DNA from: Nitrososphaera viennensis EN76 | GTDB lineage: Archaea > Thermoproteota > Nitrososphaeria > Nitrososphaerales > Nitrososphaeraceae | Direction: 5' to 3' | Length of the DNA stretch: 32,000 nt | NCBI RefSeq assembly: GCF_000698785.1 | Contig: NZ_CP007536.1 | Span: 1,620,001 to 1,652,000 of the forward strand | In this document: in pieces, positions 260 through 21,830 of the stretch | How positions within the stretch are numbered: position 1 is the first letter of the stretch | Layout: each line of letters begins with the position of its first letter | The notes under the pieces: model-generated | Seen by the model: only the letters and a program-made list of their open reading frames with translations | Database searches by the model: none | Told to the model about the DNA's origin: nothing | Translations under genes and position numbers: made by a program

Positions 260-520
260 GAAATAGACAAGTCTGCAGTGCAGACATCATGACTCCAATA
301 TCGCGACCAAGAAATAGAATTAGAAAAGTCGCAGTCTCTGCAAACACCGAGAAACGAGCATTATCTTGAAATGCAGTAAAGCAGAGTCTGCACATGCATG
401 CACTTTATTGCAGGGATTTGCATGGAAATGCATGTTTTTGCAAAGAATGCCTATCGATATTATAAATCATTATTGCTCATCCTGAACAACATATAATTTC
501 TATAATAACTAGCTCTTGTC
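260..520 (+). promoter_or_regulatory. amoC upstream control region: TGCA-core motif array plus TATA-like AT boxes
   Basis: Perfect 15-bp palindrome gtctgcaGtgcagac at 271-285. AGTCTGCA at 270-277 and 385-392, with variant AGTCTCTGCA at 333-342. Direct repeat gaaataga at 260-267 and 311-318. ttgcatgg / atgcatgt / tttgcaaag at 418-446. AT boxes tattataaat (458-467) and ttctataataac (498-509) lie upstream of the ATG at 637. Function is inferred from position only. Confidence 0.35.
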
Positions 521-636
521 AGTGTGACTAATAGCACAGTATCCAATGCATGTCTGTAAAATGTATATCATTACTTGTAGATTTTGCAACACAAGTAATT
601 AGAATTACGATTTTCTATAAATGGCGAGGAACTAAA

Positions 637-1200
637 ATGGCACAAATGCCTGCACTGATACCAAAAGAAGTCGAAATACAGAGGCTGAAAAAGATCTACA
701 TCTTTGTCATATGCCTTGGTTCTATCGCAGCCTCCGTCGAAGTCGACAACTTCGTCGATGGCTCGCTGCACCAGACTGCAATCAGAGACTCGGCCTTCAC
801 GCCGGCCCACTGGTGGCTGTACAGCCACTTCGTGGCCCTTCCAATCGGCTGGGGCATGGTGGCCATGTACGATAGAAGGGTCCCGGTACTCAGAGGTCCA
901 GGCAACTCGATGAACACGGGCTTGAAGATAACCATCATTGGCTATCTGGCAACCATGTTCACCATAGGTGTGAATGAACTCTGGCACTTCTGGTTCGTGG
1001 AAGAAATCTTCTCCGTTCCGAACCACTGGATGTTCAACATGGGTGTCGTAGTGGCATTCATGGGCGCTCTGGCCTATGTCGTCAGAGTGTACGCCAGACT
1101 GGTGGAACTGGGTGCAGAAACACCAGCAAAGAACCCGTATGTAGCAGAGTTGTACAAGCTAGCGCTGGAAGGCAAGCTGTACAGCAGGTCGATACCGTAG
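637..1200 (+). CDS. amoC: ammonia monooxygenase subunit C (archaeal AmoC), solitary copy
   Basis: The 187-aa product from ATG 637 reads MAQMPALIPKEVEIQRLKK...SIRDSAFTPAHWW...VPVLRGPGNSMNTGLK...NELWHFWFVEEIF...NHWMFNMGVVVAF. By recall this matches the strongly conserved archaeal AmoC sequence along nearly its whole length. The track ORF start at 550 adds 29 non-conserved residues. No amoA, amoB or amoX is adjacent. Confidence 0.93.
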   Translation: MAQMPALIPKEVEIQRLKKIYIFVICLGSIAASVEVDNFVDGSLHQTAIRDSAFTPAHWWLYSHFVALPIGWGMVAMYDRRVPVLRGPGNSMNTGLKITIIGYLATMFTIGVNELWHFWFVEEIFSVPNHWMFNMGVVVAFMGALAYVVRVYARLVELGAETPAKNPYVAELYKLALEGKLYSRSIP

Positions 1201-1225
1201 GAAAGAACAAACGAACAAAAAAGAG

Positions 1226-1241
1226 ACATACATACACACAC
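1226..1241. repeat. alternating purine-pyrimidine tract, 16 nt
   Basis: acatacatacacacac is strictly R-Y alternating and starts 26 nt after the amoC stop. Confidence 0.8.
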
Positions 1242-1275
1242 CGAGATAGAGGGAGAGAATATACGCATCTGTGCT

Positions 1276-1325
1276 GAGGACAGGGAGGGACTGTGCTGGT
1301 TTCCCTGTCCTCATTTTCTTTTCTT
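1276..1325 (+). terminator. hairpin plus T-rich tail downstream of amoC
   Basis: Perfect 11-bp stem gaggacaggga (1276-1286) / tccctgtcctc (1302-1312) with a 15-nt loop, followed by attttcttttctt (1313-1325). It lies between convergent amoC and the gene at 1343-1900. Confidence 0.55.
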
Positions 1326-1342
1326 AAAACAAATAGAGAAGG

Positions 1343-1900
1343 TCAGTTTTTGTATTCGAGCGATACAAGCGAGTCGCTTATGAAAAAAACTGGCGCTTTT
1401 CCAAACGCCTCCAGCGTAGACTCGAGCATTATCTTCAGGTAGAGGGACCAGTTCTTTCCCAGATCGTGTTTTATGATTATGTTATGGCCGCCGTCTTCTC
1501 GCGTGCGGTGCGCGACTTCGCAGCCCGAATTCTTCATCCTCATCTCGATCCATGAAATGAATGCATCAGAATTGAATCTGCCCTGTACAAAGATTGACAT
1601 ATCGATGGCGGTACTCTTTCCAATTCCATTTGCAAGCTTTTCGACCTCGTCCTGGTTCATACTTGCAAATATGCTTGCCAGCACCGGTTTTGGAAACGGC
1701 ATCATTCCAATCTTGGATTCAAACAGGTCCCATTCAACATGCTGGCGCAATACCTGGTTAATGTATGCGTTAAGGCTTGTCTGCCTTTTTTCTGATTCTG
1801 CGCGCAGTTTCTTCATTACGGCCGAACTGACACGAAAAGTTGCATTGACAGAGTCTTCATGAAACGTGCTACTATCTTCTTTGAAATCAGCTTCATGCAT
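1343..1900 (-). CDS. RHH-domain putative transcription regulator with uncharacterised C-terminal domain (paralog 1 of 3)
   Basis: ATG start, 185 aa. Ribbon-helix-helix pattern ATFRVSSAVMKKLRAESEKRQTSLNAYINQVLRQHV. C-terminal motifs IGMMPFP and HDLGKNWSLY are shared with 7477-8061 and 11918-12646. Confidence 0.75.
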   Translation of the reverse strand: MHEADFKEDSSTFHEDSVNATFRVSSAVMKKLRAESEKRQTSLNAYINQVLRQHVEWDLFESKIGMMPFPKPVLASIFASMNQDEVEKLANGIGKSTAIDMSIFVQGRFNSDAFISWIEMRMKNSGCEVAHRTREDGGHNIIIKHDLGKNWSLYLKIMLESTLEAFGKAPVFFISDSLVSLEYKN

Positions 1901-1921
1901 ATGTGTATGTGCATATGTACA
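1894..1921. repeat. alternating purine-pyrimidine tract, 28 nt
   Basis: catgcatatgtgtatgtgcatatgtaca is strictly alternating. It overlaps the start codon and 5' flank of the 1343-1900 gene. Confidence 0.85.
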
Positions 1922-2380
1922 ATCTATGGTCTGTAATTATAGTCTAGGTTAACCATGTTAACTGTCTGAAGCAGCGCCGCGCGATGCAGGCCCGGCAAAA
2001 ACATGATCAAAAAGTAACTCCCGGAAACTCTTCTCTTCCTCCTGCTCAGGCAGGGTCCTACTCGCCCATCTCGGGCTTTCGGACCTTGTGTCTGAACTTG
2101 GCGTGAACTATCGTTCCGTGGTTGGATGTCCGTCCCGCGGATTATAGCAATTCATTATCGTATAACCTTCTATTAAGCGAGTTCGAATGACATTCTGTAG
2201 TTTTGTAATATAGGCTTGAATTGGATAAAATATCTGTTGAAAATAAAGATGGCAAGAATTGGATTCACATGGGGCCGGTCTGAGCCGGATGTAGTTTACT
2301 CTAGTGTGAGTGTGCGACTGTCATGACGCTACTGGAAGCATCAAAGGCTTCCTGAGAAACAAAGAAGGTTAGAAAAGAAG

Positions 2381-3010: not shown

Positions 3011-3077
3011 TGTTAATTTCAAGAGGTAGTATGAGGTAAGGGGTTTGAGATTCTACTTTCCACAGCGGAGGATAAAG

Positions 3078-4565
3078 ATGAGACAAAGTAATCACTTTGG
3101 AATTGACAAGAACATCAACATAAAGAAGACATTCTTAATTATTGCAACCCTCCTTGTCGCTGGCACCCTTGCACAGATATCTGCTTCTCCAAAAGCCTTT
3201 GCAGACGGCCTCACGCAGGAAAATCTTCCTCCTGCAACATTTGGCAACCGGGAGGCAGCGCTTTTTGTCAAGATTAATCCGCCGATTCTGACGACAGAAT
3301 CGCAGCAGGATGCGTACCTGCAGTTCAGGCTGTTTGACGTCAAGACCAACGAGACGATAAAGTTCCCGACGCTCAACATCGCCGTGTACAAGGGCACGGA
3401 CCCGAAAGCCAAGCCCCTCATGCAGGATTTCTTCCAGAGTGAAAACGGCCTCTTGACGCTAAAGATAAAGCCGCAGGAAGGCCCTGTCCAGATCCAGGGC
3501 AGCCGGGAGCCGTTCCTTAGCGCATTGCAGGCAGACCCTGGCGGAACGGTGAACGTCAGCGGGCCGGTATTGCTGGACGGCGGGCTGTACCGCATCGATG
3601 TAGAGGTATTTGGCATCGATTTTCCTACTAACATCTTCAAGGACGAGGACGTCAAGACGTTCGAGACCGCCCTCTCTGTGGGCGATGTCTATAGCCAGAA
3701 CGTCCAGTCTGCAGACGGCAAGACCTACCCGATGTCTATAATCTCGTACTACGACAAGGTTGAGGACTTTAACTTTAACGCAGAATCCAAGACCTATTCC
3801 TGGGCCATGCCCTTTGACTGGAATGTAGAGAGGATACAGAACGCACAAATGTTTCGTGCATGAAGAGGTGAAGGTGCCCAAGTCGTTGCAGGCGTGGGGC
3901 GACGCGTCTGCCTTGAGCAAGGTCAACGGCAAGCCCAATGCGGGCCGCATGCTGGCAGTCGACCCGTTCGCAGACGAGAACAACCTCATACTGCACTTCT
4001 GATAAACAAGAACGACATACTGGACATGGCCAGGAACGATCCTCCGGCTGATGGAAAGATGTCGTTCTCCTTCTCTCCAGCCGGCGCCGCAGGGGAGCAG
4101 ACATCAGGCGAGATATCCACAGACACGGGCGGCATCCATGTCCTCATGAACTGGACTCCAAGCCAGCTCAAGGCAGGCACCGATACGAAACTCAACATGC
4201 GGTTTGTCGACGCGTTTGCCGGCGCCAGCATCACCGACGACGTCAAGTACGACATCAAGATATTTGACAAGGCCGGCAAGGAGGTATTTGCAAAGGCGGA
4301 CCAGATTGCCAAGGGCGGCGCAGGCGAGCAGACGGGATTGAACTTCCCTGCCGACGAGAACTACCGCGTCGAGGTGACGGTCAAGGGGCTAGTCAAGGAA
4401 GGGCAGGCGCCTGACCTCACGAGAAACGGGATTGCAAGAGGAACGGTGGTTGTGCCGGAATTTCCTGCGTCTGCCAGCATGCTCGTGGCCGTAAGCGCCA
4501 TTGTTGGACTTGTAATATTGATCCAAAGGACCCGGAAATTCACCGGAGGGAGAGGTTATCCATAG
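3078..4565 (+). pseudogene. secreted protein with PEF(G)-CTERM-like archaeosortase sorting tail, interrupted by two compensating frameshifts
   Basis: ATG 3078 gives a signal peptide (KKTFLIIATLLVAGTLAQISASPKAFA). Frame 0 stops at 3861-3863. The sequence continues sensibly in the +1 frame from 3859 (HEEVKVPKSLQAWGDASALSKVNGKPNAGRMLAVDPFADENNLILHF), stops at about 4000, then returns to frame 0 (LINKNDILDMA...). The C-terminus VVVPEFPASASMLVAVSAIVGLVILIQRTRKF is a motif plus TM helix plus basic tail, as in thaumarchaeal PEFG-CTERM proteins. Confidence 0.7.
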
Positions 4566-4826: not shown

Positions 4827-4848
4827 GGTTCTGTCAAGTCTTAGGTTG
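4827..4848. repeat. terminal inverted repeat at the tnpB 3' end
   Basis: 22/22 match to the reverse complement of 6129-6150. It overlaps the last codons of tnpB (HQPKT*). Confidence 0.9.
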
Positions 4849-6085
4849 GTGAACAACCCTGTCAACTTTCGGTTGTTGACAGTGACTCAACTTCGCAGCA
4901 TCGACTCTGAGGATTACCGGCATCGCTTCTCCCGGGTTCCCCTTCATTGCTTCACATGCTGCGCCTTTTGAACTGGCGAACCTTGCCAGCCCTTTGAATG
5001 AAAGGTTCATGGCCGCTACCACGTCCCTGTCCATCCATCTCTTGCATTCTGCACACCACAACTGCCTTGCCTTCCTGTCCTTTTGGGTCATCTTCTTCCC
5101 GCATCTAGGACAGAGCTGCGATGTGCCTCTCGTTTCCTTGACGGACAACTGAATTACGCGTACTCCTTCCCAAGCTGCTTTGTACGTGATAAGCCGCTTT
5201 ATTTCTGCAAAAGACCAGCCGTTCAATGTTGAGCGATAGTTCCTGCCCTGTCCATTACCTCGTTGATATAGCCGGCGTATGTAGGTAATGTCCTCAAATG
5301 CTATCGCTGCTTTGTCATTCTTGGCCTTGTTTGCAACTGCTTTTGATACGTGGTGTAGGAGCTGGTTTACTCTATTCCTGCGGCGCTTGCCGTACTTGTT
5401 AGCTATCTTCTTTCTTACCCTCACATCGTTGCGCTTGAACGACCGGATAATTGACCACGTGTTCTCTGTAATATCAACTGCTTTTGATAGGTCGTATTGC
5501 ATCACGTTCTCGTAATTTCCGACAGTAAGATTGCGGAGGTTCCTGTCTACGCCTTCTATGCTGGTGCATTCAACTTCTTCTGTGACCTCTTTTGAGATGC
5601 AGATGCTGACCGTGTTGCTAGCAGTCAACGTGATAGAACGCACTTTCACCGAAGGGTCTGATAGGATTCCACTTACGTGGTTATTCAGGGGAATGTCGAA
5701 GTACTGTCTGTCGCCAAGGGGCACTTTCAAAAATACTACCATCATCCACAATCTTGAACCCCGTGTATGTTGCCAGCAATGGTCTTTTGGCGTATGGTTG
5801 CCTTGGCTCAAACCCTCTCCTTATCGACGTTTTCCTGTTGGCAAGTATGCCTGCGGCGTGCGAGATTGCACAGATTTTGTAAATGCTATAAACATCGTAC
5901 CTACTAAGCTCGTGATAGCATAACTTGGTTAACTTGATTCTAGTTGATACGTTGTTTTCAAGACCGATCCTAATGCAGTCATTAACCATCTGCCTGAACG
6001 TTTCCATGAGAGGCAGCAGAGGTTCAGTTGAGCATGACTGTACAGTACTCTTGACTGCTAGCAACAGAACTAGAATTATAGTCAC
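4834..6085 (-). pseudogene. tnpB: TnpB (IS605 OrfB / IS1341-type RuvC-like nuclease), split by one frameshift
   Basis: The N-terminal ORF 5681-6085 ends ...YTGFKIVDDG. The C-terminal ORF 4834-5811 resumes VVFLKVPLGDRQYFDIPL in another frame, with the shift within about 5734-5749. Hallmarks: GVDRN (RuvC-I Asp), AIAFEDI (RuvC-II Glu), CPRCG...CAEC zinc ribbon, DRDVVAAMNL (RuvC-III Asp). Confidence 0.85.
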
Positions 6086-7048: not shown

Positions 7049-7093
7049 ATACACGCACACATACGCGCATATACTGTACGAGTATGTGCATGC
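7049..7093. repeat. alternating purine-pyrimidine tract (26-nt perfect run plus 6- and 12-nt continuations)
   Basis: atacacgcacacatacgcgcatatac (7049-7074) is strictly alternating. It is followed by tgtacg and gtatgtgcatgc, and starts 16 nt after the V4R stop. Confidence 0.85.
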
Positions 7094-7476: not shown

Positions 7477-8061
7477 ATGACAACCACCAGCATTACATTT
7501 CGCATTGATGATAACCAGATAGAACGTTTAAGAAAATTGGCAGACGAACAGAGGATATCTCTCAATACTCTAATAACTCATATTCTCGACTCATATCTAG
7601 AATTTGAATTCATTGCTCCAAAAGTAGGATTTGCTCCAATGCAGAAATCTGTTCTGAAAGACTTGTTTGAAGCAGTACCTGATGAAGAAAAGATAAAGCA
7701 AATAGCAATCAAGGCTGCAGACGATCTCATAGATTCAATTCTTATTATATACGGTAAGGTTGACTTGGACTCGGTTCTTTCTTTAATATCGAGCAGGGTC
7801 AGGAGGTCAGGCTTTACATTAAGAGAGTTTGAAAATGGCAAAAGTCAGGAGATGACCCGTGTGACAAGAAAATTGGTTATGCAACATGACGTAGGCTATC
7901 ACTGGTCGCTTTTCTCCAAGACACATATCGAAAGACTAATCAACAATGCAGGTTATGCTGCAAAGATAGAGATGACTGAGAACTCTTTGATAATCGAGAT
8001 CCTGGAACGAGGAGAAGAGACAGGGGCTGACAGTAGGGGCCAACTTCGTACGCAATTCTGA
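7477..8061 (+). CDS. RHH-domain putative regulator with uncharacterised C-terminal domain (paralog 2 of 3)
   Basis: ATG start with the AT box cttattattat about 20 nt upstream. RHH pattern ITFRIDDNQIERLRKLADEQRISLNTLITHILDSYL. Shared motifs VGFAPM and HDVGYHWSLF. Confidence 0.75.
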   Translation: MTTTSITFRIDDNQIERLRKLADEQRISLNTLITHILDSYLEFEFIAPKVGFAPMQKSVLKDLFEAVPDEEKIKQIAIKAADDLIDSILIIYGKVDLDSVLSLISSRVRRSGFTLREFENGKSQEMTRVTRKLVMQHDVGYHWSLFSKTHIERLINNAGYAAKIEMTENSLIIEILERGEETGADSRGQLRTQF

Positions 8062-8308
8062 CCGTAGTTGTTCTCATGCCGGAAACTGGTCTCATTCTGC
8101 TGTCAGTCCTTTTCCTCCATAATCTGGTGTAGGATGAAAAGGTTCTCTACTTGCTTGCTAAACCCCAAGCTTTCAGGCCATATGCCAAAACAATCTCTAG
8201 AGGTCAAAGAGATCTATATCCTCAGCCCGAAAGACCTGACAAAAGAAAAAGTAGTGGGCGAACAGGGCTTTTTTGATAACCTGAAAAAATCCTGGATGTT
8301 GGGGGATT

Positions 8309-8343
8309 TGCATGCATGTATGTGTGTATGTGTGTGCGCGTGC
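8309..8343. repeat. alternating purine-pyrimidine tract, 35 nt (longest in the window)
   Basis: tgcatgcatgtatgtgtgtatgtgtgtgcgcgtgc is strictly alternating. It lies 20 nt beyond the stop of the minus-strand gene 8363-8542. Confidence 0.9.
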
Positions 8344-8362
8344 TTTTGGTCCACTGTTGATC

Positions 8363-8542
8363 TTACGAAGGGATCTCGTACCCCGCGTTTGGCAAGCACT
8401 TGTCGCAATACTTTTGGATTAGCAGGCAATCTTCCAGCTGGAAGAATACATCTGTTGTCGCTTTTTCGTTGCAGAATGAGCATTGTGTTGAAATCTTGTG
8501 TTTGTCAGGCTGGGTGGGTCTTGTTTCAAATGGTCTAATCAT
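8363..8542 (-). CDS. small Cys4 zinc-ribbon protein, family member 1 of 3
   Basis: The internal ATG at 8542 gives a 59-aa product, MIRPFETRPTQPDKHKISTQCSFCNEKATTDVFFQLEDCLLIQKYCDKCLPNAGYEIPS. It is colinear with 19132-19314 and 30620-30802. Confidence 0.7.
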   Translation of the reverse strand: MIRPFETRPTQPDKHKISTQCSFCNEKATTDVFFQLEDCLLIQKYCDKCLPNAGYEIPS

Positions 8543-9453: not shown

Positions 9454-10173
9454 ATCGCGCTACGACGGCCGCGAGGAAAAACAAGAAAACCAAGTGAAAC
9501 CTACAGAGTCTTGATGATTGTTTACCAAGAAAAGGGTAAAATTCCAAGTCAACATGGGAGGATGGGCAAGAGCTGACTGTCTCTTGTGCTCTACGCCCAT
9601 CCGCCGCGATTCTTTATAACTTGAACCGCATCTCCGATCGTGACAGGACTTTGCCGCAGTTGTATTAATAAGATATGTAAAGCAATGAAATGAAGGTGCA
9701 ATCTGGTTATCCGGGTGACGAAGAGGCTGTCAAACGTCGGGTTATGGTGAGAAAAACAATACTTGTGGCATTGGACATTTCTGCTCATATCCCTTATCTA
9801 TTCGAGCGCATCTAGCCCAGCGCGAAGGATGGTATACGCTCTGGAAACTGATTTTTCTTGTCGAACGCCTTTTTCTTTGGTGCAATTTCGATAAGCAGAG
9901 CCTGTTAATGCCGCGGGGTGATTCCTTGGCACCTAGTCTGTGGCTTGACCCGTCATCTTGATAATAGGATTGCACTTGTCGGATACGTACCGCTCGGTTA
10001 ATCGCAGGTGGCTGGCCATCCTATTTTCTACGTCTATGGACATGGAGCTTGGAGCTCCGGGAAGCCATTGATAATCTAGCTGGCACCTTTGGGAGAGGAA
10101 GAGTTGACGCCCATGGCAAACCCACAAGTCACAAACTCGTTAATATTTCTCGGTCGTAGAATTCTACTGTAAG

Positions 10174-10455
10174 ATGCAAGGCAAAATGCAAGTAATTTCC
10201 CTACAAGAACTCGAAAGAATGGAGAAGCTAATCCGCCTTCTCGAAATTATCTTCACCATTTTCAAGTACTTGCCTCTCATAATCGGGGTCCTTGCGGGCA
10301 TATCTCTGATACTTGCCACTCTCAACTTCATTGAGAAGAGCTATGGGTGGGCCATTGTCAATCTTATACTTGGCTTAGCAGGGGTGCTTTTCGTGATGAG
10401 GGCGAACAGGCGTCATCCGGAGCATTTCAATGGACCATCCGATTTGACGCACTAG
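10174..10455 (+). CDS. small membrane protein, two predicted TM helices
   Basis: ATG start, 93 aa. Hydrophobic stretches LPLIIGVLAGISLILATL and WAIVNLILGLAGVLFVM. Confidence 0.5.
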   Translation: MQGKMQVISLQELERMEKLIRLLEIIFTIFKYLPLIIGVLAGISLILATLNFIEKSYGWAIVNLILGLAGVLFVMRANRRHPEHFNGPSDLTH

Positions 10456-10551
10456 ATGGTTTTGATATGCCTTGCAGCCATCTTGTCGTACCTAAACCAC
10501 GGCGAAAGAAAGATGATCATAAAAAAACAAAATTGACTTCGATAATGTGAG

Positions 10552-10716
10552 TTACTTTACTTCTTCTTGCTTTAGAGAAAGATACCCTTTGACTCCGCAT
10601 GTTGGACATTCTCTCTCGAGTGCCTCTTCACGCAGCTTCCCCTTATCAACTTGGACGGGGCCGCTCGATTTACACTGGGCGCATTCTACCATTACCAGAT
10701 AGTAATCATTATCCAT
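10552..10716 (-). CDS. 54-aa zinc-ribbon mini-protein (below the ORF-track cutoff)
   Basis: Manual translation: MDNDYYLVMVECAQCKSSGPVQVDKGKLREEALERECPTCGVKGYLSLKQEEVK. It has a CxxC...CxxC arrangement, ATG start and TAA stop. Confidence 0.5.
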   Translation of the reverse strand: MDNDYYLVMVECAQCKSSGPVQVDKGKLREEALERECPTCGVKGYLSLKQEEVK

Positions 10717-11019
10717 AGAATGGATCGTGAAAAATCATATTAATGAGTTTACGAATTTGGCATTTTCACAATCCGTACATGAAGGGATACTTGACTGTCT
10801 GCATAAAGGAATTGAACCCTGACCCGATACTTGACAGCCTCTTCGTGACCCGGATAACCAGACAATACCGAAATGAAGGCCTAGTATGAAAGGCAATTGA
10901 TCATAACATAGTAAAGGTAGACTTGGCTGCAGAGAAGATGCGTGCGTGCCAGAAAGTGATGGGGGACATGCTAGAGCAAGCATGTCCGCTCCTTCTCTCT
11001 CTATATACAGCAGTCTATG

Positions 11020-11226
11020 TTAGAATTTCTTGCTGCATGCCATGCAGTATGTCTTTAGAAACCTGCCTTCCAGCCTGCCGTTTGTCAGGTATCCTATGAG
11101 GGCGCCACAATTTTCGCACTTTAATGCTGTCACGCAACTTGTGTGGTACCACTTGTCGTCCACTGTTATCCCTGTGCTTGACTCTGCAATCTTGAGCCCG
11201 CACACCGAACAGTTGTTGGTGGGCAT
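11020..11226 (-). CDS. 68-aa multi-CxxC zinc-ribbon protein (cassette A, downstream gene)
   Basis: MPTNNCSVCGLK...WYHTSC...KCENCGALIGY...KTYCMACSKKF from the ATG at 11226 (the track start at 11229 is TTG). The Cys pattern parallels 20136-20384. Confidence 0.65.
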   Translation of the reverse strand: MPTNNCSVCGLKIAESSTGITVDDKWYHTSCVTALKCENCGALIGYLTNGRLEGRFLKTYCMACSKKF

Positions 11227-11318
11227 CAAAGAAATTGACGTATCCTAATCTATAAAGAATTTTGCAAACGTTGTGTGATGTATAGTGAGAAGAGGCGCCC
11301 GCTTCTTTTTTCCGCGTC

Positions 11319-11462
11319 CTACAAAAGACCTCCGTACACCTGCATTCTGTGCGCGCGCAGCCCATCCTTCAACATTGCAGTATCCGCAATGGCACAATCC
11401 TCTCCAAACAATTCACACTTGCTTTCCTCAATTGCGGTGTAGAACTTGTCTTCTTGTTCCAT
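11319..11462 (-). pseudogene. Cys-rich micropeptide gene, copy A; apparently frameshifted relative to copy B at 20560-20664
   Basis: MEQEDKFYTAIEESKCELFGED... compares with copy B MEKEKAAASYILEESRCEAFGES.... About 75 nt are roughly 75% identical, including the identical 16-mer ttgcagtatccgcaat (plus strand). One 1-nt indel lies at about 11391-11400. In the copy-B frame, copy A would read CHCGYCNVEG against CDCGYCNIDG. Confidence 0.4.
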
Positions 11463-11917
11463 AAGCGTAGTTCTACTGATAACACCGGCAGCTTCTATAG
11501 CAGTAGAGACTGCTGGGATGAGAGCAAGGTCAAGGAACGGCAGGAGGTGCAGCATAGCCGTTTAGACCACAGCTGGAAAAAGCGAAAAGTAGAGATTTCT
11601 GCGCATGACAGCAAGCAAGCGTGCAAGACAATCATCAGATTGCGCTTGCAATTTTCTGTACACGCGACACTTAAAGGGTTCAACAATGCAACTTGCTGTT
11701 AGGTAAATATTGGGTTTACCGGCCCTGTCCCGGTATGAGAGCAAGACCTAGGGGCGGGGCCTTGCATACACCCAACGTCAATTCTATCCTTCTCTATTCG
11801 GTTGGTGGACTGGTTGAGCGATTAGGAGATAGAAAATTTAACAACGGAGCAGAACGAGATGATGATGTTACGCCACTACTACTGCTACCAATAAAATAAT
11901 CAGCAGTAGAGCAACTA

Positions 11918-12646
11918 CTATCCATCTATACTAACTCCCGCAAGATGCATACTAAATGAGGCTTTGTTCGTGTTGAAAATTATCTCATCATAGCTTCCAT
12001 CTGGCAATAATTCCTGCAAAACAGCAGAAAACATTCCCTTGTAATAGAGCGACCAGTTCTGGCCCATGTCGTGGTGAATCATGACAAAGATAGAGTTCGG
12101 ATTGGCCTCTTGCTTGAGCAGCAACTCAAAGCCTAAAACTCTGCATCTCAACTCAATCCACTGGATAAAACTCTCTATATTGTAGCCTGACTTGAACAGC
12201 AAGAAATCCCTTATGGTTTGATCCTTCTGCATCTGTCCTATTTCCTCAATCTCTTCTGGAGTCATTTTGCTGAGCATGATCCTGATCATGCTTTTGTGCA
12301 TGGGCATGAATCCCAGTCTTTCCTGGAAGCGCCCCCAAGAAATGTACTTTTTCAAGACCGTGATTATGAATGAGTTGACACTTGCGTCATCCTTGGCGGC
12401 TTCGTCTCTCAAGGATTCCAAAAGGTTGCTAGGAATGCGCAGCATCAGAGGCCTGCTTTTTCTGGCTGCTTTTTCTTTCTTGGTGGCAGTTACTGCTGCA
12501 ATTCGTTGTTGTTGTTGCCGCTGCTCCTGATGGTGTCTGGTGGAATTCTTGCTGTTGCCGCCGCTACTTCTGCTATTGTTTTTGTCGTCGTCGCCATCAT
12601 CTCTCCATCGAGGAGAGATGGCTCCTGCCCCTTCCCTTGTCGTCAC
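11918..12646 (-). CDS. RHH-domain putative regulator with uncharacterised C-terminal domain (paralog 3 of 3)
   Basis: RHH pattern LMLRIPSNLLESLRDEAAKDDASVNSFIITVLKKYI. Shared motifs LGFMPM and HDMGQNWSLY. The start is uncertain: GTG at 12646 gives a Q/R/S-rich low-complexity 67-aa extension, while the ATG at 12445 starts right at the RHH strand. Confidence 0.75.
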   Translation of the reverse strand: MTTREGAGAISPRWRDDGDDDKNNSRSSGGNSKNSTRHHQEQRQQQQRIAAVTATKKEKAARKSRPLMLRIPSNLLESLRDEAAKDDASVNSFIITVLKKYISWGRFQERLGFMPMHKSMIRIMLSKMTPEEIEEIGQMQKDQTIRDFLLFKSGYNIESFIQWIELRCRVLGFELLLKQEANPNSIFVMIHHDMGQNWSLYYKGMFSAVLQELLPDGSYDEIIFNTNKASFSMHLAGVSIDG

Positions 12647-12804: not shown

Positions 12805-12883
12805 CCATTCATTCTATTGAAAGTGATAAAAGAAAAGAGGAGGAGATAGAAGAAGGATAGAAGGGAGTAAAATCGCCTTCTCT

Positions 12884-14290
12884 CTACTTTACCATCACCG
12901 TCCCTGTCATCCACGGATGCAGCGAACAATAGTAATCGTACGATCCTGGTTCCGCGAACGTGTGTTCGAACGTCTTTTTCTGGGAGATGAGATCTGAAGC
13001 AAAGATCCCTTCTGTTTTACTGGCGACTAGGTGGAACGAACTGTCGTCGTTCTTCCAAGTCACGGTGGTTCCTGCATTTACGGTTATGCTGGCCGGCTCG
13101 AAAGTTTTGTTCTGATCTACCGCCACATTCTTGGGCATGACAACCACGTTGGTTTGTACTGGTGCACCGTCATCAACTTTGATCGTGCTGTCATTAGCAT
13201 CGCTCGTCTGGTGCGCGGTATCGTGTGACTTCGAAGGTGATGATATTGTTGGTGCTTGTACGCTTGTCGCTCCGGAAGGATCTTGCTTTTGTAGCTCTTT
13301 GGCAAGTTTCTCCTGCCATCCGATCATGCTAATCGATTTTGTCCTGGCAATGTCTACGCCGTCTACTGCGCCAGCAGGAGCGTCTGTCACGTTAAAGTAT
13401 GCCATTGTGCCTTTTTCCTCCGGCAACCCGTGGAGATGGAACAGGTACCTTCCCTCCCAGGGCCATCTGGCCTCAAATATCGCGCCATTGCCTGCCGCTA
13501 CCTCCCATGTCTGCACTTTCATCGGGTCGTTATCCCAGATTCCTGACAGATATGCGTCAAAGATGGTGCCGTGGATGTGAAAGCCATAGGCCGGCGATCC
13601 GCCCATGTTGACATAGTATACTCGTACGGTCTCGTTTGTCCTTACTTCTAGGGGGTGATCCCAGTACTGGTCGACATAGCCGTTAAAGAAGACGTATTCT
13701 GGGTTGTTTGTCATCTGGTCTTTGGTGTCGTATTCGCCTGCCACCAGCACGTATTCTCTTGCCGGCGAGAGGCCTTCCTTGGGATCAACTATCAAGGCGC
13801 CGTACAGCCCCATCCTTACGTGCTGCGTCACAGGCATCACATGACAATGGTACATCAACGCGCCAGGCGGTCCTGCAATAAAGTCATACGTGTATGTTTC
13901 GCCGGGCTTGACTACCTGAAAGACTCCGTCGTCTTTTTCATCGTGGTCGCCATGAAGATGTACTGTATGAGGCATCGGGGTTCTGTTTATGAAGTGAAGG
14001 ACGACCCTGTCTCCCTCGGTAGCTCTGAGAATGGGTCCCGGTATGGTTCCGTTGTAGGTCCAGGCCTCGACCCTGATTCCTGATGCTATTTCAAGCGTCG
14101 TATTCTCTCCAATTAGCGTATATTCGACAGTGCGCTGCGCCCCTCCCTGCAAGGCGCCTGCTCCCTCTTGTACAGAATTCTGCTGGATTTCTGAACTGCT
14201 TGGCTGCAGCACGAAATACCCGCCGATACCGGTTAGTGCGACGGATGCCGATATTGCAACGGCAAGAATCGCCATAGATATGCCTACCAT
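12884..14290 (-). CDS. multicopper oxidase (two-domain type) with N-terminal membrane anchor/signal and fused C-terminal plastocyanin-like cupredoxin domain
   Basis: Copper-ligand motifs HTVHLHG, MYHCHVMPVTQHVRMG (HCH flanking the T1 Cys), FHIHG and FHLHG. C-terminal blue-copper motif YDYYCSLHPWMTGTVMV. The N-terminus is hydrophobic (ISMAILAVAISASVALTGIGGYF). I take the ATG at 14290; the track start at 14293 is TTG. Confidence 0.9.
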   Translation of the reverse strand: MVGISMAILAVAISASVALTGIGGYFVLQPSSSEIQQNSVQEGAGALQGGAQRTVEYTLIGENTTLEIASGIRVEAWTYNGTIPGPILRATEGDRVVLHFINRTPMPHTVHLHGDHDEKDDGVFQVVKPGETYTYDFIAGPPGALMYHCHVMPVTQHVRMGLYGALIVDPKEGLSPAREYVLVAGEYDTKDQMTNNPEYVFFNGYVDQYWDHPLEVRTNETVRVYYVNMGGSPAYGFHIHGTIFDAYLSGIWDNDPMKVQTWEVAAGNGAIFEARWPWEGRYLFHLHGLPEEKGTMAYFNVTDAPAGAVDGVDIARTKSISMIGWQEKLAKELQKQDPSGATSVQAPTISSPSKSHDTAHQTSDANDSTIKVDDGAPVQTNVVVMPKNVAVDQNKTFEPASITVNAGTTVTWKNDDSSFHLVASKTEGIFASDLISQKKTFEHTFAEPGSYDYYCSLHPWMTGTVMVK

Positions 14291-15716: not shown

Positions 15717-16082
15717 CTACGCTATGGCAGTAGTGGTATACAAGCCTGCGGGGATGAAGGCAAGGCTATTTCCTGCAACTGCTCCTGTTCCTTCCTTCTT
15801 CTTCTTTTTCTCCCTCTCCCACATCGCCATGATTGCCGCCTTGTATTCGGGGTCTCTGTACAGCTTTCTCAGGGCCTTGTTCTTTATGCAGGAGGGGCAT
15901 ATCAGCCTGTGCATCTTGGCACTAGTGGGGTGGGCAAGGCTACGGCGGTTTCCAAACCTGTGCCGGCACACAAGGCATACGATCGCAAAATCCTGTACTG
16001 GCCTTGCAGAGTGGTAGCTGTGCATGGCAGCAGCATCTCCTTTCTCCTCCACCCTCATCATATTGTGGGCCTCTTTCTGCAT
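15717..16082 (-). CDS. Cys/His zinc-finger protein with Lys-rich tail, possible DNA-binding protein
   Basis: 121 aa, ATG start. CLVCRHRFGNRRSLAHPTSAKMH (C2H2-like spacing CxxC-x11-H-x6-H), then CPSC, then REKKKKKE. It is divergent from the P450 gene. Confidence 0.5.
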   Translation of the reverse strand: MQKEAHNMMRVEEKGDAAAMHSYHSARPVQDFAIVCLVCRHRFGNRRSLAHPTSAKMHRLICPSCIKNKALRKLYRDPEYKAAIMAMWEREKKKKKEGTGAVAGNSLAFIPAGLYTTTAIA

Positions 16083-18227: not shown

Positions 18228-18247
18228 ACACACATACATACACATGT
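18228..18247. repeat. alternating purine-pyrimidine tract, 20 nt
   Basis: acacacatacatacacatgt is strictly alternating and lies about 65 nt beyond the ferredoxin stop. Confidence 0.85.
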
Positions 18248-18259
18248 CCAGCCGGTTTC

Positions 18260-18266
18260 AAAAAAA
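18260..18266 (-). terminator. oligo-T (T7) tract downstream of the ferredoxin gene
   Basis: The minus strand reads gctttttttg about 45 nt after the stop at 18312. Confidence 0.35.
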
Positions 18267-18311
18267 GCGGGGTGGTGGCGTGGGAGGGACAAAAAGATTG
18301 TTTTGTTGCTG

Positions 18312-19314: not shown

Positions 19315-19451
19315 AGAATGAAATAGAGCCGTCCGCGTGGCAGCAGGATGTACGGCGCTAGCCGCCGTTCTGATTCGCCAATCAAAATACATTATCATGT
19401 GCCTCTGCAGCCGGAAGCACTTTAATTTGATCAAATTTCTACGAGATCGAA

Positions 19452-19685: not shown

Positions 19686-19868
19686 TGATAGTAGTAGTAA
19701 AATATGATCTCTTTCCGCAGGCCTGCGCAAGATCTTTTCATTCGTGTGCCTGCCAAGTCAAGACAGGATCAAGTTGCCATCACGTGTATCAACATAAAAA
19801 ATATGGGACACTCTTAAGTCTCATCAATGCGCAATATCTAGCTGCATCTTGCAGGTTGACAGAATTTT

Positions 19869-19988
19869 ATGGAAGAAGAAAAATTTCCTCCATGCGACAA
19901 TTGCGGCAACAATTCCGCAGAGATATTCCAGGCAGAGGGAAATTTCTGTCTTTTCTGCTGGCAGAAACTGACTGAAAGCAGGATATAG
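19869..19988 (+). CDS. 39-aa zinc-ribbon mini-protein (below the ORF-track cutoff)
   Basis: Manual translation: MEEEKFPPCDNCGNNSAEIFQAEGNFCLFCWQKLTESRI (CxxC...CxxC). It is in a different frame from the track ORF 19685-19975. Confidence 0.4.
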   Translation: MEEEKFPPCDNCGNNSAEIFQAEGNFCLFCWQKLTESRI

Positions 19989-20135
19989 TTTTTTCTGCTG
20001 TTGTGCCTAGTACATGCGGCTCTTTTGCCGCAAAGGACGGGATTTGCTTTGCGACATCGTGTACCTGCTGCATACGTACATGCATCCCGCCTTCTCCAAA
20101 TACGATATAGCTGTGTATGTGGTCTCTTGGTGGCG

Positions 20136-20384
20136 CTACTGCTGCTTCTTTTGAAAGCCGAAATAGCAGGAATAGCAATATTGCTTTCCATATATTACGC
20201 CCTGCGCGCCGCAGCCTGCACACTGCTTCTCGTGCTCTATGGTCGAATTGAGCGACTTTGCCTTTTGCAAGCACTTGCCACAGATGGGCGCTTCCAGGTG
20301 GTAGCTGGACAGAAAGCCTTCTCCACACTGACCGCATCTCAAACTATACATCTTGCCCTTTGGTTTCCAGCCAAATAGTCTCAT
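20136..20384 (-). CDS. multi-CxxC zinc-ribbon protein (cassette B, downstream gene)
   Basis: MRLFGWKPKGKMYSLRCGQCGEGF...ICGKC...QCAGCGAQGVIYGKQYCYSCYFGFQKKQQ has four CxxC pairs. An alternative ATG lies at 20351. A decayed copy of the C-terminal part is at 23079-23157. Confidence 0.65.
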   Translation of the reverse strand: MRLFGWKPKGKMYSLRCGQCGEGFLSSYHLEAPICGKCLQKAKSLNSTIEHEKQCAGCGAQGVIYGKQYCYSCYFGFQKKQQ

Positions 20385-20559
20385 GTCTAAAAGATGTCGG
20401 TACTGTATTGACGCTTCCTACTTAAAAATAAATGGTAACACAGTTCCTCGATAATCCTGTGCGTGCGTACAAGTGCAGATCCAGCCAATCCGGCTGTTCA
20501 AATGCCGCGATTTATTTGCGCGTTGCTGTGCGCCTCGTTTTATCAAAAAGATAGTTGAA

Positions 20560-20664
20560 TTATCCATCGATGTTGCAGTATCCGCAATCGCACCTGGATT
20601 CTCCAAACGCTTCGCACCTGCTTTCTTCCAAGATATACGATGCTGCCGCCTTTTCTTTTTCCAT
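20560..20664 (-). CDS. 34-aa acidic, 4-Cys micropeptide, copy B (below the ORF-track cutoff)
   Basis: Manual translation: MEKEKAAASYILEESRCEAFGESRCDCGYCNIDG. It is paralogous at DNA and protein level to 11319-11462, and has the same position upstream of a multi-CxxC gene. Confidence 0.45.
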   Translation of the reverse strand: MEKEKAAASYILEESRCEAFGESRCDCGYCNIDG

Positions 20665-20877
20665 GATACTGTTAGCCAGAATTCCGTTTAATTACTTGCT
20701 AGCATAAAGTTTTGAAATTTCAGATACAGGTTTGATTTGTCAGCAGCCGCCAGGCTAGCGTCGAACCGTTTATGATTACTTTAACCGCGTTTTGAATGGT
20801 AATAACCGGGAGCTAGGATCCTTAATCACTGATCCCTACATATTTTAGTCTGCAATGAACCTGTTTGAATCTATTTC

Positions 20878-21156
20878 ATGGATAGCCCTTGGCTTTGCGC
20901 CTACATTTGCAGCTATGGAAGCGGCATGGAGTATGGCCAAGTGGAGGCAGGCAAAGCTGCTTGGAGCAACGCAGGTGAGGCTGTAAGGGATATGGAACCT
21001 GTGGGCCTCGTATCTGTTGTACTTGGATCTGCAGTCCTGACGGCGATGGCAGCCTCGATAGCTGTTGATGGAATAAGAAGAAAATCGACAGGCAGGCAAG
21101 CTATTCATGCCATAGACAGCCGATGGAAAAAGCTAAAGGTAGAAATTCCTGCCTGA
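20878..21156 (+). CDS. possible small membrane protein
   Basis: The ORF has one hydrophobic segment (VGLVSVVLGSAVLTAMAASIAV). The true start may be an internal ATG (MEPVGL...). An overlapping antisense ORF exists, so coding status is uncertain. Confidence 0.3.
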   Translation: MDSPWLCAYICSYGSGMEYGQVEAGKAAWSNAGEAVRDMEPVGLVSVVLGSAVLTAMAASIAVDGIRRKSTGRQAIHAIDSRWKKLKVEIPA

Positions 21157-21201
21157 CAGCCACGCTCGATCTTTACAAAAAACAATACGCGGACTTGGCA
21201 G

Positions 21202-21230
21202 GCACACGCACATGCGTGCGTGTGTACATG
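21202..21230. repeat. alternating purine-pyrimidine tract, 29 nt
   Basis: gcacacgcacatgcgtgcgtgtgtacatg is strictly alternating and lies about 60 nt beyond the stop of 21290-21763. Confidence 0.9.
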
Positions 21231-21289
21231 ATGGCAGGAGAAATTATTTTTGGCCCCTTCCAATAAAAAATAATACGTCTGACGTCTGG

Positions 21290-21763
21290 TTAACTACTAC
21301 TATTATTATTGCTGCCGGACGGGCTTTCCTTCCAGCTTTGTTCTGCGCGTTGCTTTAGCGCCATGTTCATGCTTTCAAGCTGCTTGGCCAGCAGCGGGTG
21401 CAGGTTCCTCGCAATGAGCGAAACAATGTCTCCCCCAAACCGCGCAGTCTGAAGGAACGTCACACGGTTGTGCGCAAGAGGCTGTATTGTAAGCCGGTGC
21501 TCCACACCAAAGAGGTTTCCTCCGTTTTTTCCGCCCCAGGCTATTTCGCGCTCTGTCTCTGCGTCTAACACTACGAATTCGTCATGCACAATCTTTTCGT
21601 TGGCTAGCTTGATCTCCATTTCAAGTCTGGAGTTGATTTTTAGTTCGCCATTTATCTTCAGGATGAACGGGTTCCATTCAGGGTACTTTGGAAAATCTGC
21701 AATTATGTTCCATACTACAAACGCCGGAGCGTCAATGACGACAGTTGTGTGGAGTTCTTCCAC
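21290..21763 (-). CDS. SRPBCC (START/polyketide-cyclase-like) ligand-binding protein
   Basis: 157 aa, GTG start. TTVVIDAPAFVVWNIIADFPKYPEWNPFI... is a typical SRPBCC N-terminal pattern. It ends in a low-complexity tail, SGSNNNSSS. Confidence 0.8.
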   Translation of the reverse strand: MEELHTTVVIDAPAFVVWNIIADFPKYPEWNPFILKINGELKINSRLEMEIKLANEKIVHDEFVVLDAETEREIAWGGKNGGNLFGVEHRLTIQPLAHNRVTFLQTARFGGDIVSLIARNLHPLLAKQLESMNMALKQRAEQSWKESPSGSNNNSSS

Positions 21764-21806
21764 GACAAAATTAGATGGCCGTGATGCTATTAAATTAAAC
21801 TGAACA

Positions 21807-21830
21807 ATGTGCGCGTGTGTGCGTGCATGT
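21807..21830. repeat. alternating purine-pyrimidine tract, 24 nt
   Basis: atgtgcgcgtgtgtgcgtgcatgt is strictly alternating and lies 44 nt upstream of the SRPBCC start. That gene is therefore bracketed by two such tracts. Confidence 0.9.

Follow-up and report, generated by a model that had tools for sequence, protein, structure and literature searches.

The closest described counterparts of the tracts reported here are the degenerate (TG)n/(CA)n microsatellites, or "cryptic simplicity", of eukaryotic non-coding DNA. There, as here, purine-pyrimidine (R-Y) runs built from TG, CA, TA and CG steps are restricted to non-coding sequence, the locus stays in place between species as its length and content shift by indels, and each tract is biased toward TG or CA. 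The present case differs in its archaeal host, in the shortness of the tracts (14–35 nt, with pure arrays of at most four units) and in that no length polymorphism was seen between strains, a comparison of very low power. Among the archaea, Yang, Kim and DasSarma reportedly described in 1996 an alternating purine-pyrimidine RY box in the Halobacterium bop promoter and proposed that it adopts a non-B structure under supercoiling. That element likewise stands beside a promoter, but it consists of one 11-bp box whose location in its one promoter is fixed, whereas here dozens of tracts of 14–35 nt lie near the 5' as well as the 3' ends of genes, at distances that vary (0–247 nt from starts), and are often missing at the promoters of sister species. 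REP elements and MITEs are also short, abundant and found between genes only, but the tracts have no terminal inverted repeats, common consensus or copy-like relationship; their sequences all differ and do not align as copies, which bears out the view of the preliminary description that they do not represent one sequence or a mobile repeat. Z-DNA "flipons" share the strict alternation, the length of 14–35 bp and the proximity to gene boundaries, but the local excess of long runs here is more than 100-fold, and the composition has not moved toward good Z-formers. In published surveys, predicted Z-DNA motifs are ~1.7-fold enriched over shuffles in archaea, as judged across the tree of life (bioRxiv 10.64898/2025.12.30.697008), RY patterns are generally suppressed across prokaryotes (PMC4060949), and archaeal genomes show, on average, no enrichment of STRs (PMC12699852). 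These Z-DNA, RY and STR surveys do not mention Nitrososphaera, and the literature searched holds no description of such tracts for the genus, as the preliminary description had supposed for these archaea.

The window analysed is a stretch of 32,000 nt from Nitrososphaera viennensis EN76. Ten runs had been listed in it, and all were verified as strictly alternating at the coordinates and lengths claimed (35, 29, 28, 26, 24, 20, 16, 15, 14 and 12 nt). Further runs were found at 20069–20085 (17 nt) and, as 13-mers that are both intragenic, at 13885–13897 and 25398–25410, together with several 12-mers. Ten runs in the window span 14–35 nt, and 51 kb of N. viennensis DNA contains 18, all exceeding the alternation of at least ~12 bp looked for in Z-DNA. 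The tracts, none of which is assigned to a strand, are as follows.

389..403: 15-nt alternating R-Y tract TGCACATGCATGCAC, 233 nt upstream of the AmoC start (637)
1226..1241: 16-nt CA-type tract where AmoC (stop at 1200) and RHH-like gene A (stop at 1343) converge, with a second run of 10 nt nearby at 1259–1268
1894..1921: 28-nt tract mixing TG, CA and TA at RHH-like gene A (1343–1900, minus strand), whose 5' end, at the annotated ATG, it overlaps by 7 nt
7049..7093: 26-nt CA-type tract (7049–7074) and 12-nt TG-type run (7082–7093), 15 nt past the stop of a V4R gene, with RHH-like gene B ~400 nt downstream of the tract
8309..8343: 35-nt TG-type tract, the longest of all, 247 nt downstream of RHH-like gene B and within a mechanical ORF (8068–8538) that public gene calls omit
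10938..10949: 12-nt run of a length within chance, in a 1477-bp segment missing from two newer N. viennensis assemblies
18228..18247: 20-nt CA-type tract, 64 nt downstream of a ferredoxin gene (minus strand) and immediately preceded by a conserved T-run beyond that gene
20069..20085: 17-nt tract TGCATACGTACATGCAT within a called 156-aa ORF
20458..20471: 14-nt tract in a divergent spacer
21202..21230: 29-nt quasi-palindromic tract, half CA-type and half TG-type, lying between a 76-aa gene and an SRPBCC gene whose stops converge on it
21807..21830: 24-nt TG-type tract on the upstream side of the SRPBCC start, 43 nt away from it, adjoining a promoter-like (TATA-like) block kept in four species

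Winged-helix genes (ArsR, HTH_45) are also encoded near the tracts.

The spacers of N. viennensis and its closest relatives contain perfect alternating tracts far beyond chance. Dinucleotide-preserving shuffles of the window (300) gave 0.023 runs of at least 20 nt against the six observed, upholding the earlier claim for these six, 0.41 of at least 16 nt against eight, and 1.6 of at least 14 nt against ten; for runs of 20 nt or more, Markov models of order 2–5 gave no more than 0.05. Runs of at least 12 nt arise ~6 times per window in shuffles, so the run at 10938–10949 is no evidence by itself. Only R/Y alternation is affected, as strong/weak and keto/amino alternation showed no excess. Coding and intergenic DNA were also counted apart, as had been proposed, using the gene calls of public assemblies for 51 kb of the N. 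viennensis genome. Within this stretch, the 20 kb of spacer yielded 16 runs of 14 nt or more (1.1–1.4 expected), ten of 16 nt or more (0.3 expected) and six of 20 nt or more (at most 0.03 expected), and coding DNA had alternating runs at the expected level. The statement that the tracts occur only in intergenic DNA essentially stands for runs of at least 14 nt, 16 of 18 of which fall in the non-coding 39% of the 51 kb. The exceptions are 20069–20085, which lies in a called ORF, 33601–33616 (outside the window), which falls within eIF-1A under one of its two start calls only, the longer, and the few overlapping nucleotides of 1894–1921. It is doubtful that the 156-aa ORF around 20069–20085, which has no Pfam hit on record, is a real gene. 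The excess was also present in N. evergladensis and four uncultured relatives and was not found in 1.07 Mb around amoC from 80 other Nitrososphaeraceae loci or in 0.49 Mb of unrelated contigs; it is specific to the N. viennensis / N. evergladensis clade.

The tracts were then compared with orthologous loci, foremost L091, an N. evergladensis-like locus that forms with L094 an N. evergladensis pair of 99.2% identity. Four tract positions are common to N. viennensis and L091, with gaps of 4, 1, 8 and 8 nt, which is the retained locus and changing length expected of a microsatellite. Within the spacers, conservation is lowest in the orthologous tracts themselves (48–69% identity, with indels). 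Changes between sister species are mainly indels, mostly even in length, and tracts confined to a single lineage align as gaps of 10–20 nt in the other. The counterpart of 1226–1241 occupies the same position in L091 (14212–14231) with a different length and content; the orthologues of 1894–1921 (14882–14908 in L091, 598–614 in L094, one transition apart) have conserved flanks and diverged interiors; that of 20458–20471 (L091 11337–11358) is 8 nt longer; and the place of 21202–21230 is taken in L091 by a different 21-nt tract, with shorter runs lying downstream of the gene in L092 and L093. The tract at 389–403 has no tract counterpart in L091, where homology starts 4 nt past it. At 21807–21830, the N. 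viennensis tract includes a 10-nt insertion relative to three orthologous loci, which have at most a short run (10 nt ACATGCATAT, in L091). Beyond the ferredoxin gene, where N. viennensis has 18228–18247, L091 carries a separate 16-nt insertion right after the stop codon, so placement there is not conserved. The positional conservation in relatives raised earlier is seen at the four shared positions, where length and content differ; several other tracts are insertions made in one lineage.

The L091/L094 pair differs by 25 transitions and 5 transversions, the sole within-tract change being a transition, and its indels are located in other simple sequence. The two tracts common to this 99.2% identical pair show no indel, and N. 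viennensis contigs and assemblies show no tract length difference, both comparisons being of very low power. Flanking spacer of N. viennensis and N. evergladensis has diverged by ~8.7% in transversions. At that rate each lineage should have gained ~3.8 transversions across the four shared tracts (87–90 nt), and essentially none were seen. Given this shortfall, alternation must be restored by either slippage or selection.

We put at roughly one half the probability that the tracts are cryptically simple sequence, peculiar to this lineage and driven by slippage within unusually long spacers, with alternation kept by even-length indels and a transition bias. In this view, brief stretches of alternation in the long spacers of the clade, which are under weak constraint, would act as seeds, growing and shrinking by slipped-strand mispairing in units of 2, 4, 8 or 10 nt. 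Because misalignment by an even offset in an alternating tract would create purine-pyrimidine (wobble-type) mispairs only, a degenerate tract would remain slippage-prone and keep its phase. Transition-biased substitution would shuffle which purine or pyrimidine stands at each site and leave alternation unbroken, and purifying selection would purge coding DNA of tracts. The spacer-only excess and the restriction to R/Y alternation favour slippage, as does base make-up, which is that of background DNA conditioned on alternation: GC is 43.1% in tracts and 42.8% in spacers, and the YR steps of 43 tracts are 62% CA+TG, 26% TA and 12% CG against 58/26/16 in the spacer background. Also in its favour, single tracts lean toward TG or CA (heterogeneity p = 1.4e-4; 8309–8343 has 11 TG, 2 CA, 2 TA and 2 CG steps) and contain internal units, with TRF reporting 2.4 copies of a perfect 8-nt unit TGTATGTG in 8309–8343 and 2.6 copies of period 10 with 75% matches in 7049–7093. 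Indel turnover, the transition bias, neutral placement and scarcity where spacers are short, tracts being shorter and rarer in gene-dense regions (L099, L096), count on the same side. Several observations count against slippage. No young arrays were found: pure dinucleotide runs reach at most (TG)4 or (CA)4 (8 nt), none having, e.g., at least five perfect units, and active dinucleotide slippage should leave some longer ones. Length polymorphism was not seen among strains (low power), transversions are too few for plain decay, and the tracts have a weak closeness to gene ends (P = 0.03). Slippage also does not account for the clade limit; the amounts of non-ORF DNA are similar in other Nitrososphaeraceae.

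A less probable alternative is that the tracts are selected non-B-DNA elements, that is, Z-DNA "flipons". These would switch conformation under the negative supercoiling that transcription generates, and would buffer torsion or insulate neighbouring transcription units from each other. Alternation alone would then be selected and base identity would drift, in keeping with 20–35 nt of perfect alternation despite near-random base identity, and with four positions that persist across species and essentially lack transversions as their sequence turns over. An RY excess is also unusual, since such patterns are usually suppressed in prokaryotes (PMC4060949). If the tracts were tuned as Z-DNA switches, a shift toward Z-favouring steps might be expected, but across the 43 tracts CG steps, which favour Z-DNA, are no commoner than in spacers, and TA steps, which disfavour it, are no rarer; nothing indicates such tuning, and this composition test speaks against it, if indirectly. 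A rough calculation from dinucleotide energies put the B-to-Z threshold at about 0.04–0.08 (|sigma| 0.042–0.077). The longest tracts, at ~0.042–0.052, would suit a flipon, but most tracts are of 14–18 nt, with estimates of 0.055–0.077. Judged by their sequence, the tracts could form Z-DNA only under strong negative superhelical stress.

Placement bears on the same question. Two genes, 1343–1900 (RHH-like gene A, by 1226–1241 and 1894–1921) and 21290–21763, are bracketed by tracts on both sides, as had been correctly noted, and tracts lie nearer to gene ends than random placement would put them (median 57 against 114 nt, P = 0.03). Both points would fit flipons. Neither 5' nor 3' ends are preferred, nor is any type of spacer: the nearest gene end of the 16 intergenic tracts is 5' for nine and 3' for six, one overlaps a start, and tandem, divergent and convergent spacers hold tracts in proportion to their length. 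Most tracts had been said to sit 15–90 nt beyond a stop codon, which is true of only four of the ten (1226, 7049, 18228 and 21202). Transcription punctuation beyond stops, one of the options named earlier, is not supported by these counts or by orthologous promoters and terminators in sister species, which often lack a tract. The same variable presence, upstream of SRPBCC and 3' of ferredoxin, argues against flipons, as do the even spread over gene ends and spacer types and the near absence of tracts from gene-dense regions.

It is improbable that the tracts are fossils, left by pure (TG)n/(CA)n microsatellites that appeared in a burst in the clade ancestor and have decayed passively by transitions with no ongoing process. 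The four-unit ceiling on pure arrays, the TG or CA bias of each tract and the 5:1 ratio of transitions to transversions over a short divergence would all follow from such decay, and adjacent runs (e.g. 7049–7074 with 7082–7093, and a pair of 16-mers upstream of the window with 14 nt between them) resemble tracts split by one change. But several tracts are lineage-specific insertions postdating the split of N. viennensis and N. evergladensis, length differences of 4–13 nt separate orthologous tracts, and passive decay should have left the expected transversions in the shared tracts.

Sequence-specific cis-elements, either sites of a lineage-specific regulator (e.g. the nearby RHH-like or wHTH paralogs) or parts of core promoters or terminators, are highly improbable. 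Some tracts do adjoin promoter-like sequence, as at 21807–21830 with its conserved TATA-like block, a few short AT-rich tracts lie ~30–50 nt upstream of starts, and RHH-like gene A is flanked on either side. The absence of a shared consensus and the poor conservation of orthologous tracts within their spacers are at odds with binding sites, and the SRPBCC promoter, conserved in four species, is tract-free in three of them, the upstream tract being found in N. viennensis only. A role in RNA or as cruciforms, with hairpins serving as terminators, stability elements or parts of small RNAs, is more doubtful still. Hairpins of 10–12 bp are possible at 21202–21230, 21807–21830 and 8309–8343, the first with an energy of -17.3 kcal/mol where alternation-preserving shuffles gave -12.2 (p = 0.06), but folding was no better than in such shuffles for 17 of 18 tracts (p < 0.05 in one), seven had no predicted structure, the window had no match to Rfam families, and the TG or CA strand type relative to the upstream gene is not conserved among orthologues. 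Sequencing or assembly artefacts can be dismissed as next to impossible, as six contigs, each from a different sample, agree at 100% identity over 6368–27624 of the window, two complete NCBI assemblies carry the flanking tracts unchanged, and like tracts occur in independent genomes of related species.

Taken as a whole, the earlier interpretation is partly supported. Simple-sequence dynamics, which it does not mention, with slippage by even lengths and transition-biased substitution, would fit the comparative data at least as well as the structural reading (Z-DNA or chromatin) does, and for the tracts in the spacers of this clade no function would need to be assumed.

A direct scan of the window for perfectly alternating purine-pyrimidine (R-Y) runs returned, at identical coordinates and lengths, all ten runs listed in a preliminary description of this DNA, together with a 17-nt run and some 12-13-mers absent from that list.

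Alternating R-Y runs in the window, by direct scan (coordinates, length)
8309-8343, 35 nt
21202-21230, 29 nt
1894-1921, 28 nt
7049-7074, 26 nt
21807-21830, 24 nt
18228-18247, 20 nt
20069-20085, 17 nt, newly listed here
1226-1241, 16 nt
389-403, 15 nt
20458-20471, 14 nt
10938-10949, 12 nt

The claim that such runs exceed chance was borne out. Six runs of at least 20 nt were observed, compared with a mean of 0.023 in 300 dinucleotide-preserving shuffles; the same shuffles gave means of 0.41 for runs of at least 16 nt (8 observed) and 1.6 for runs of at least 14 nt (10 observed), and under Markov models of order 2-5 no more than 0.05 runs reaching 20 nt are predicted for the window. Runs of 12 nt arose about six times per shuffled window, so the run at 10938-10949 carries no evidential weight alone. 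The alternating-step fraction of the whole window is ordinary (0.488), and the excess therefore sits in discrete tracts rather than in a general bias. A general dinucleotide bias of the spacers was also rejected, as this fraction, 0.495 for spacers, compares with 0.485 for genes, and the runs are not reproduced by Markov models of any order from 1 to 5. Only R/Y alternation is in excess; strong/weak and keto/amino alternation are not. Polypurine/polypyrimidine runs of up to 33 nt (15788-15820, 23788-23813, 12828-12846, and others beyond the window) also exceed expectation in N. viennensis, by about 8-fold in spacers. Since they are found within called genes too and are equally common in 80 control Nitrososphaeraceae loci, these runs were treated as a separate, family-wide feature, and general R/Y-level low complexity was rejected as a cause of the alternating tracts. 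The segment 6368-27624 is 100% identical in six contigs and independent assemblies agree, so the tracts are not assembly artefacts; no tract length variation was seen among those six contigs. The excess of alternating tracts is confirmed as real and statistically strong.

By public gene calls about 61% of the surrounding region is coding, which makes it unusually gene-poor, and its GC is low (46.9% for the window). Exact protein matches assign the window to N. viennensis, and proteins encoded just beyond it are named N. viennensis EN76; the region also recurs in two complete records, CP103305.1 and CP104300.1, as well as in contigs from several samples. Its ORFs encode AmoC, a multicopper oxidase with a cupredoxin tail, a cytochrome P450, a ferredoxin, an SRPBCC protein, a TnpB fragment, and three paralogs of an RHH-like protein, and many called ORFs of 43-120 aa have no Pfam hit on record. 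Contiguous N. viennensis DNA assembled from flanking look-ups came to 51.2 kb. Runs of at least 14, 16, and 20 nt numbered 16, 10, and 6 in 20.2 kb of intergenic DNA, where Markov models of order 1-3 predict 1.1-1.4, 0.3, and at most 0.03; in 31.0 kb of coding DNA they numbered 1-2, 1, and 0, against predictions of 0.9-1.4, 0.2-0.3, and 0.01. At the 14-nt threshold the intergenic count amounts to roughly 0.8 tracts per kb of spacer. The earlier statement that the tracts are confined to intergenic DNA stands for the 51.2 kb, as 16 runs of at least 14 nt lie in spacers and both in-gene runs of that length are doubtful cases: one (20069-20085) lies in a called 156-aa ORF (19867-20337) without a Pfam hit on record, and the other is in a gene only if the longer of two alternative eIF-1A start calls is used. 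The 35-nt tract falls in a mechanical 156-aa ORF (8068-8538) that is absent from the public gene calls. Both tract-containing ORFs, the mechanical and the called one, are probably spurious.

Several other features of the window were recorded alongside the tracts.

Genes and other features of the window (coordinates, strand where assigned, description)
1343-1900, minus strand, RHH-like gene A
3045-3863 and 3894-4565, two "peptidase" ORFs
4834-5811, TnpB ORF
7477-8061, plus strand, RHH-like gene B
9702-9748 and 10816-10862, 47-nt inverted repeat
10000-11476, segment of 1477 bp with several small called genes
11918-12646, minus strand, third RHH-like paralog
21290-21763, SRPBCC gene
21764-21806, minus strand, promoter-like block TTGTTCAGTTTAATTTAATAGCATCA
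31891-31929, tandem repeat of the 15-nt unit GATATCATGGGAGAA

The three paralogs lie within 11 kb and belong to one uncharacterised family, with a conserved HDxGxxWSL motif and, at the N-terminus, a weak RHH/CopG/HicB-like match. Orthologues occur in N. evergladensis, a Nitrososphaera sp. MAG, and metagenome contigs, with a 28%-identical match in a Nitrosopumilaceae MAG; the homology search returned orthologues only and no further N. viennensis paralogs. Some tracts adjoin members of this family. The 1477-bp segment is missing from CP103305.1 and CP104300.1, where position 9999 is joined directly to 11477, and is present in three ENA/Logan contigs (L001-L003). No direct repeat was found at the 9999/11477 junction, and the inverted repeat (87% complementary) spans one edge of the segment. 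At its start, CP103305.1 encodes a 479-aa "peptidase", of which the two "peptidase" ORFs are possibly a copy broken by a frameshift; clustering with it at 90% identity or more was shown for the first of them only. The adjoining TnpB ORF (about 303-325 aa) may be truncated; only its Cas12f1-like TNB domain was matched. The top-scoring tandem repeat of the window (2.6 copies, 95% matches) lies upstream of a VTT-domain gene.

An amoC-centred genome scan returned no N. viennensis locus and was therefore used as a family-wide control, comprising 80 loci from other Nitrososphaeraceae (1.07 Mb, of which about 270 kb lies outside ORFs of at least 100 aa). Over the full length of these loci, three runs reach 16 nt and one reaches 20 nt; outside ORFs, ten reach 14 nt and one reaches 16 nt. 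With the same crude ORF mask, N. viennensis has 12 and 7 such runs in 17 kb, which per kb outside ORFs is about 19-fold and about 110-fold the control density. Unrelated metagenome contigs (0.49 Mb), which came from an SRPBCC-alignment scan that yielded almost only distant homologues (33-44% identity) and thus serve only as a second negative control, contain 8, 1, and 0 runs of at least 14, 16, and 20 nt. Tract-bearing loci of relatives were obtained via orthologues of the proteins encoded in the window.

Runs of at least 14 nt in loci of relatives
L091 (N. evergladensis-like; 99.2% identical to N. evergladensis over the 6.2 kb common with L094), 9 runs in 20 kb
L094 (N. evergladensis, CP007174), 5 runs
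L092, 7 runs in 13 kb
L093, 5 runs in 20 kb
L182, 2 runs in 14 kb

Because the tracts are present in these loci and scarce in the controls, the feature is specific to the N. viennensis/N. evergladensis clade. A gene-dense N. evergladensis locus (L096) lacks runs of 14 nt or longer, and the spacers of L099, 11.4 kb of gene-dense N. viennensis DNA from another part of the genome, hold one 15-mer and one 13-mer; tract density tracks the amount of spacer DNA in the regions examined.

Among the 16 intergenic tracts, nine are nearest to a 5' end, six are nearest to a 3' end, and one overlaps a start. They are distributed over tandem (8), divergent (6), and convergent (2) spacers roughly in proportion to spacer length, and they lie a median of 57 nt from the closest gene end, compared with 114 nt for random placement within spacers (P = 0.03). 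The preliminary description had placed most tracts 15-90 nt beyond a stop codon, which is true of four of its ten, and the counts support no link to stop codons or to one spacer type. It was correct that the genes at 1343-1900 and 21290-21763 are bracketed on both sides by tracts, and its view that the tracts are not copies of one mobile repeat also holds, as they do not form a repeat family.

Composition was examined in the 43 clade tracts of at least 14 nt. Their GC content is 43.1% (spacer background, 42.8%), their CA+TG, TA, and CG steps make up 62%, 26%, and 12% of YR steps (58%, 26%, and 16% in spacers), and their AT, AC, GC, and GT steps make up 34%, 26%, 21%, and 19% of RY steps (33%, 22%, 23%, and 22% in spacers). 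The tracts thus look like spacer DNA with alternation imposed. No tuning toward Z-DNA was detected relative to spacers, as the good Z-former CG is not enriched and the poor one, TA, is not depleted; the tracts count as potential Z-DNA by sequence but not by composition. Judged by sequence, they would form Z-DNA only under strong negative superhelical stress, and a Z-DNA function is unproven. The B-to-Z transition was estimated, using dinucleotide and junction energies attributed to Ho et al. 1986, to require roughly |sigma| 0.042-0.052 for the longest tracts and 0.055-0.077 for 14-18-mers, values that would plausibly be reached only transiently, behind a transcribing polymerase. Single tracts are biased to TG or to CA (heterogeneity p = 1.4e-4), and two have visible internal units, one TGTATGTG (2.4 copies) and the other a 10-nt unit (2.6 copies), which points to repeat ancestry; no pure dinucleotide run exceeds four units. 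Hairpins or cruciforms as a general property were rejected, as predicted energies are no better than those of alternation-preserving shuffles (p < 0.05 in 1 of 18 tracts). Seven of the 18 tracts have no predicted hairpin structure, and no known RNA family was matched in the window by Rfam.

Spacers of N. viennensis and L091 align at 73-78% identity, and four tracts are shared in position: at the AmoC 3' end, the 5' end of RHH-like gene A, the spacer at 20458, and the SRPBCC 3' end. Their flanks can be aligned; inside, the tracts differ in both content and length, the gaps being 4, 1, 8, and 8 nt. The tract at 21807-21830, upstream of SRPBCC, contains a 10-nt insertion relative to three other species, which have at most a short run at this site (10 nt in L091, ACATGCATAT) beside the conserved promoter-like block. 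This block, about 20 nt upstream of the SRPBCC GTG start, is kept in four species (counterparts at about 9953-10000 in L091, L092, and L093), which suggests that the SRPBCC leader is short or absent. L091 carries two insertions (16-18 nt) that N. viennensis lacks, one following the ferredoxin stop and the other upstream of a NapD-like gene. Over the 99.2%-identical stretch of L091 (14295-20474) and L094 (1-6168), 25 transitions and 5 transversions have occurred; the sole change within a tract is a transition that preserves alternation, and the two indels (15 nt, in a purine-rich repeat, and 3 nt) are both in other simple sequence. Spacers of N. viennensis and L091 differ by about 8.7% transversions, so that if the tracts were passive fossils about 3.8 transversions per lineage would be expected in the four shared ones, but essentially none was observed. 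Something must therefore restore alternation, either continuing even-length slippage or selection. The block carrying AmoC and RHH-like gene A differs between N. viennensis (389-1960 and 18228-18311) and L091 (13177-14930) in its placement and orientation relative to the ferredoxin and P450 genes. Its homology ends lie about 4-80 nt from the tracts at 389-403, 1894-1921, and 18228-18247, which could be coincidence given the tract density in spacers.

The best-supported reading, to which we assign a probability of about 0.5, is that the tracts are cryptically simple sequence turning over by slippage in long, weakly constrained spacers, much as degenerate (TG)n-type simple sequence does in eukaryotic non-coding DNA. 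Tracts would arise and turn over through slipped-strand expansion and contraction. Misalignment at even offsets inside an alternating tract would yield purine-pyrimidine mispairs only, so that degenerate tracts could keep slipping and keep their phase, transition bias would scramble base identity while leaving alternation intact, and selection would clear such tracts from genes. Slippage explains a composition like that of the background, a lean to TG or CA in single tracts, indels mostly of even length, insertions limited to one lineage, and the lack of preference for a gene end or spacer type. The restriction of the excess to one clade is not explained by it, and slippage sits uneasily with the missing young pure arrays and strain-level length variation; with no array of five or more perfect units, the tracts are not microsatellites in the strict sense. 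The main rival reading, that alternation itself is selected for a role as Z-DNA or other non-B DNA, would explain both the missing transversions and the positional persistence of tracts, but we consider it unlikely, as composition is untuned, most tracts are short, and presence at orthologous promoters and 3' ends is patchy. Slightly less probable is the proposal that spacer alternation is selected in this clade and that the tracts are non-B-DNA elements which respond to supercoiling at the boundaries of transcription units and, as flipons do in eukaryotes, come and go. The tracts do not qualify as RY boxes of the type in the Halobacterium bop promoter. Passive fossils, protein-binding sites, RNA hairpins, and artefact jointly take the probability left by slippage and by selection on alternation.

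Poly(dT-dG) was reportedly absent from archaebacteria, according to a 1986 report. Surveys find RY patterns generally suppressed in prokaryotes (PMC4060949), STRs not enriched in archaea (PMC12699852), and predicted Z-DNA motifs only about 1.7-fold enriched in archaea (bioRxiv 10.64898/2025.12.30.697008). None of these three mentions Nitrososphaera, and no literature linking Nitrososphaera with Z-DNA or simple sequence repeats was found, nor any under the assembly accessions. Set against such suppressed or chance-level frequencies, a cultivated archaeon with a more than 100-fold local spacer excess, missing from its close family members, is an outlier, and the novelty lies in simple, Z-prone alternating tracts in an unexpected host. 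Neutral or selected, the tracts matter for annotation, as at ORFs 8068-8538 and 19867-20337. Neutral tracts would give information on slippage, on repair, and on weak selection where spacers are unusually long, as in this lineage, and would also supply hypervariable markers for Nitrososphaera populations. Selected tracts would put non-B DNA to use at gene boundaries, something rare among prokaryotes. The finding would be considerably more interesting if selection on alternation or non-B structure in vivo were demonstrated, and supercoil-responsive elements, if that is what the tracts are, would give archaea their first genome-wide system of this kind, in a host that is a cultivated model ammonia oxidiser.
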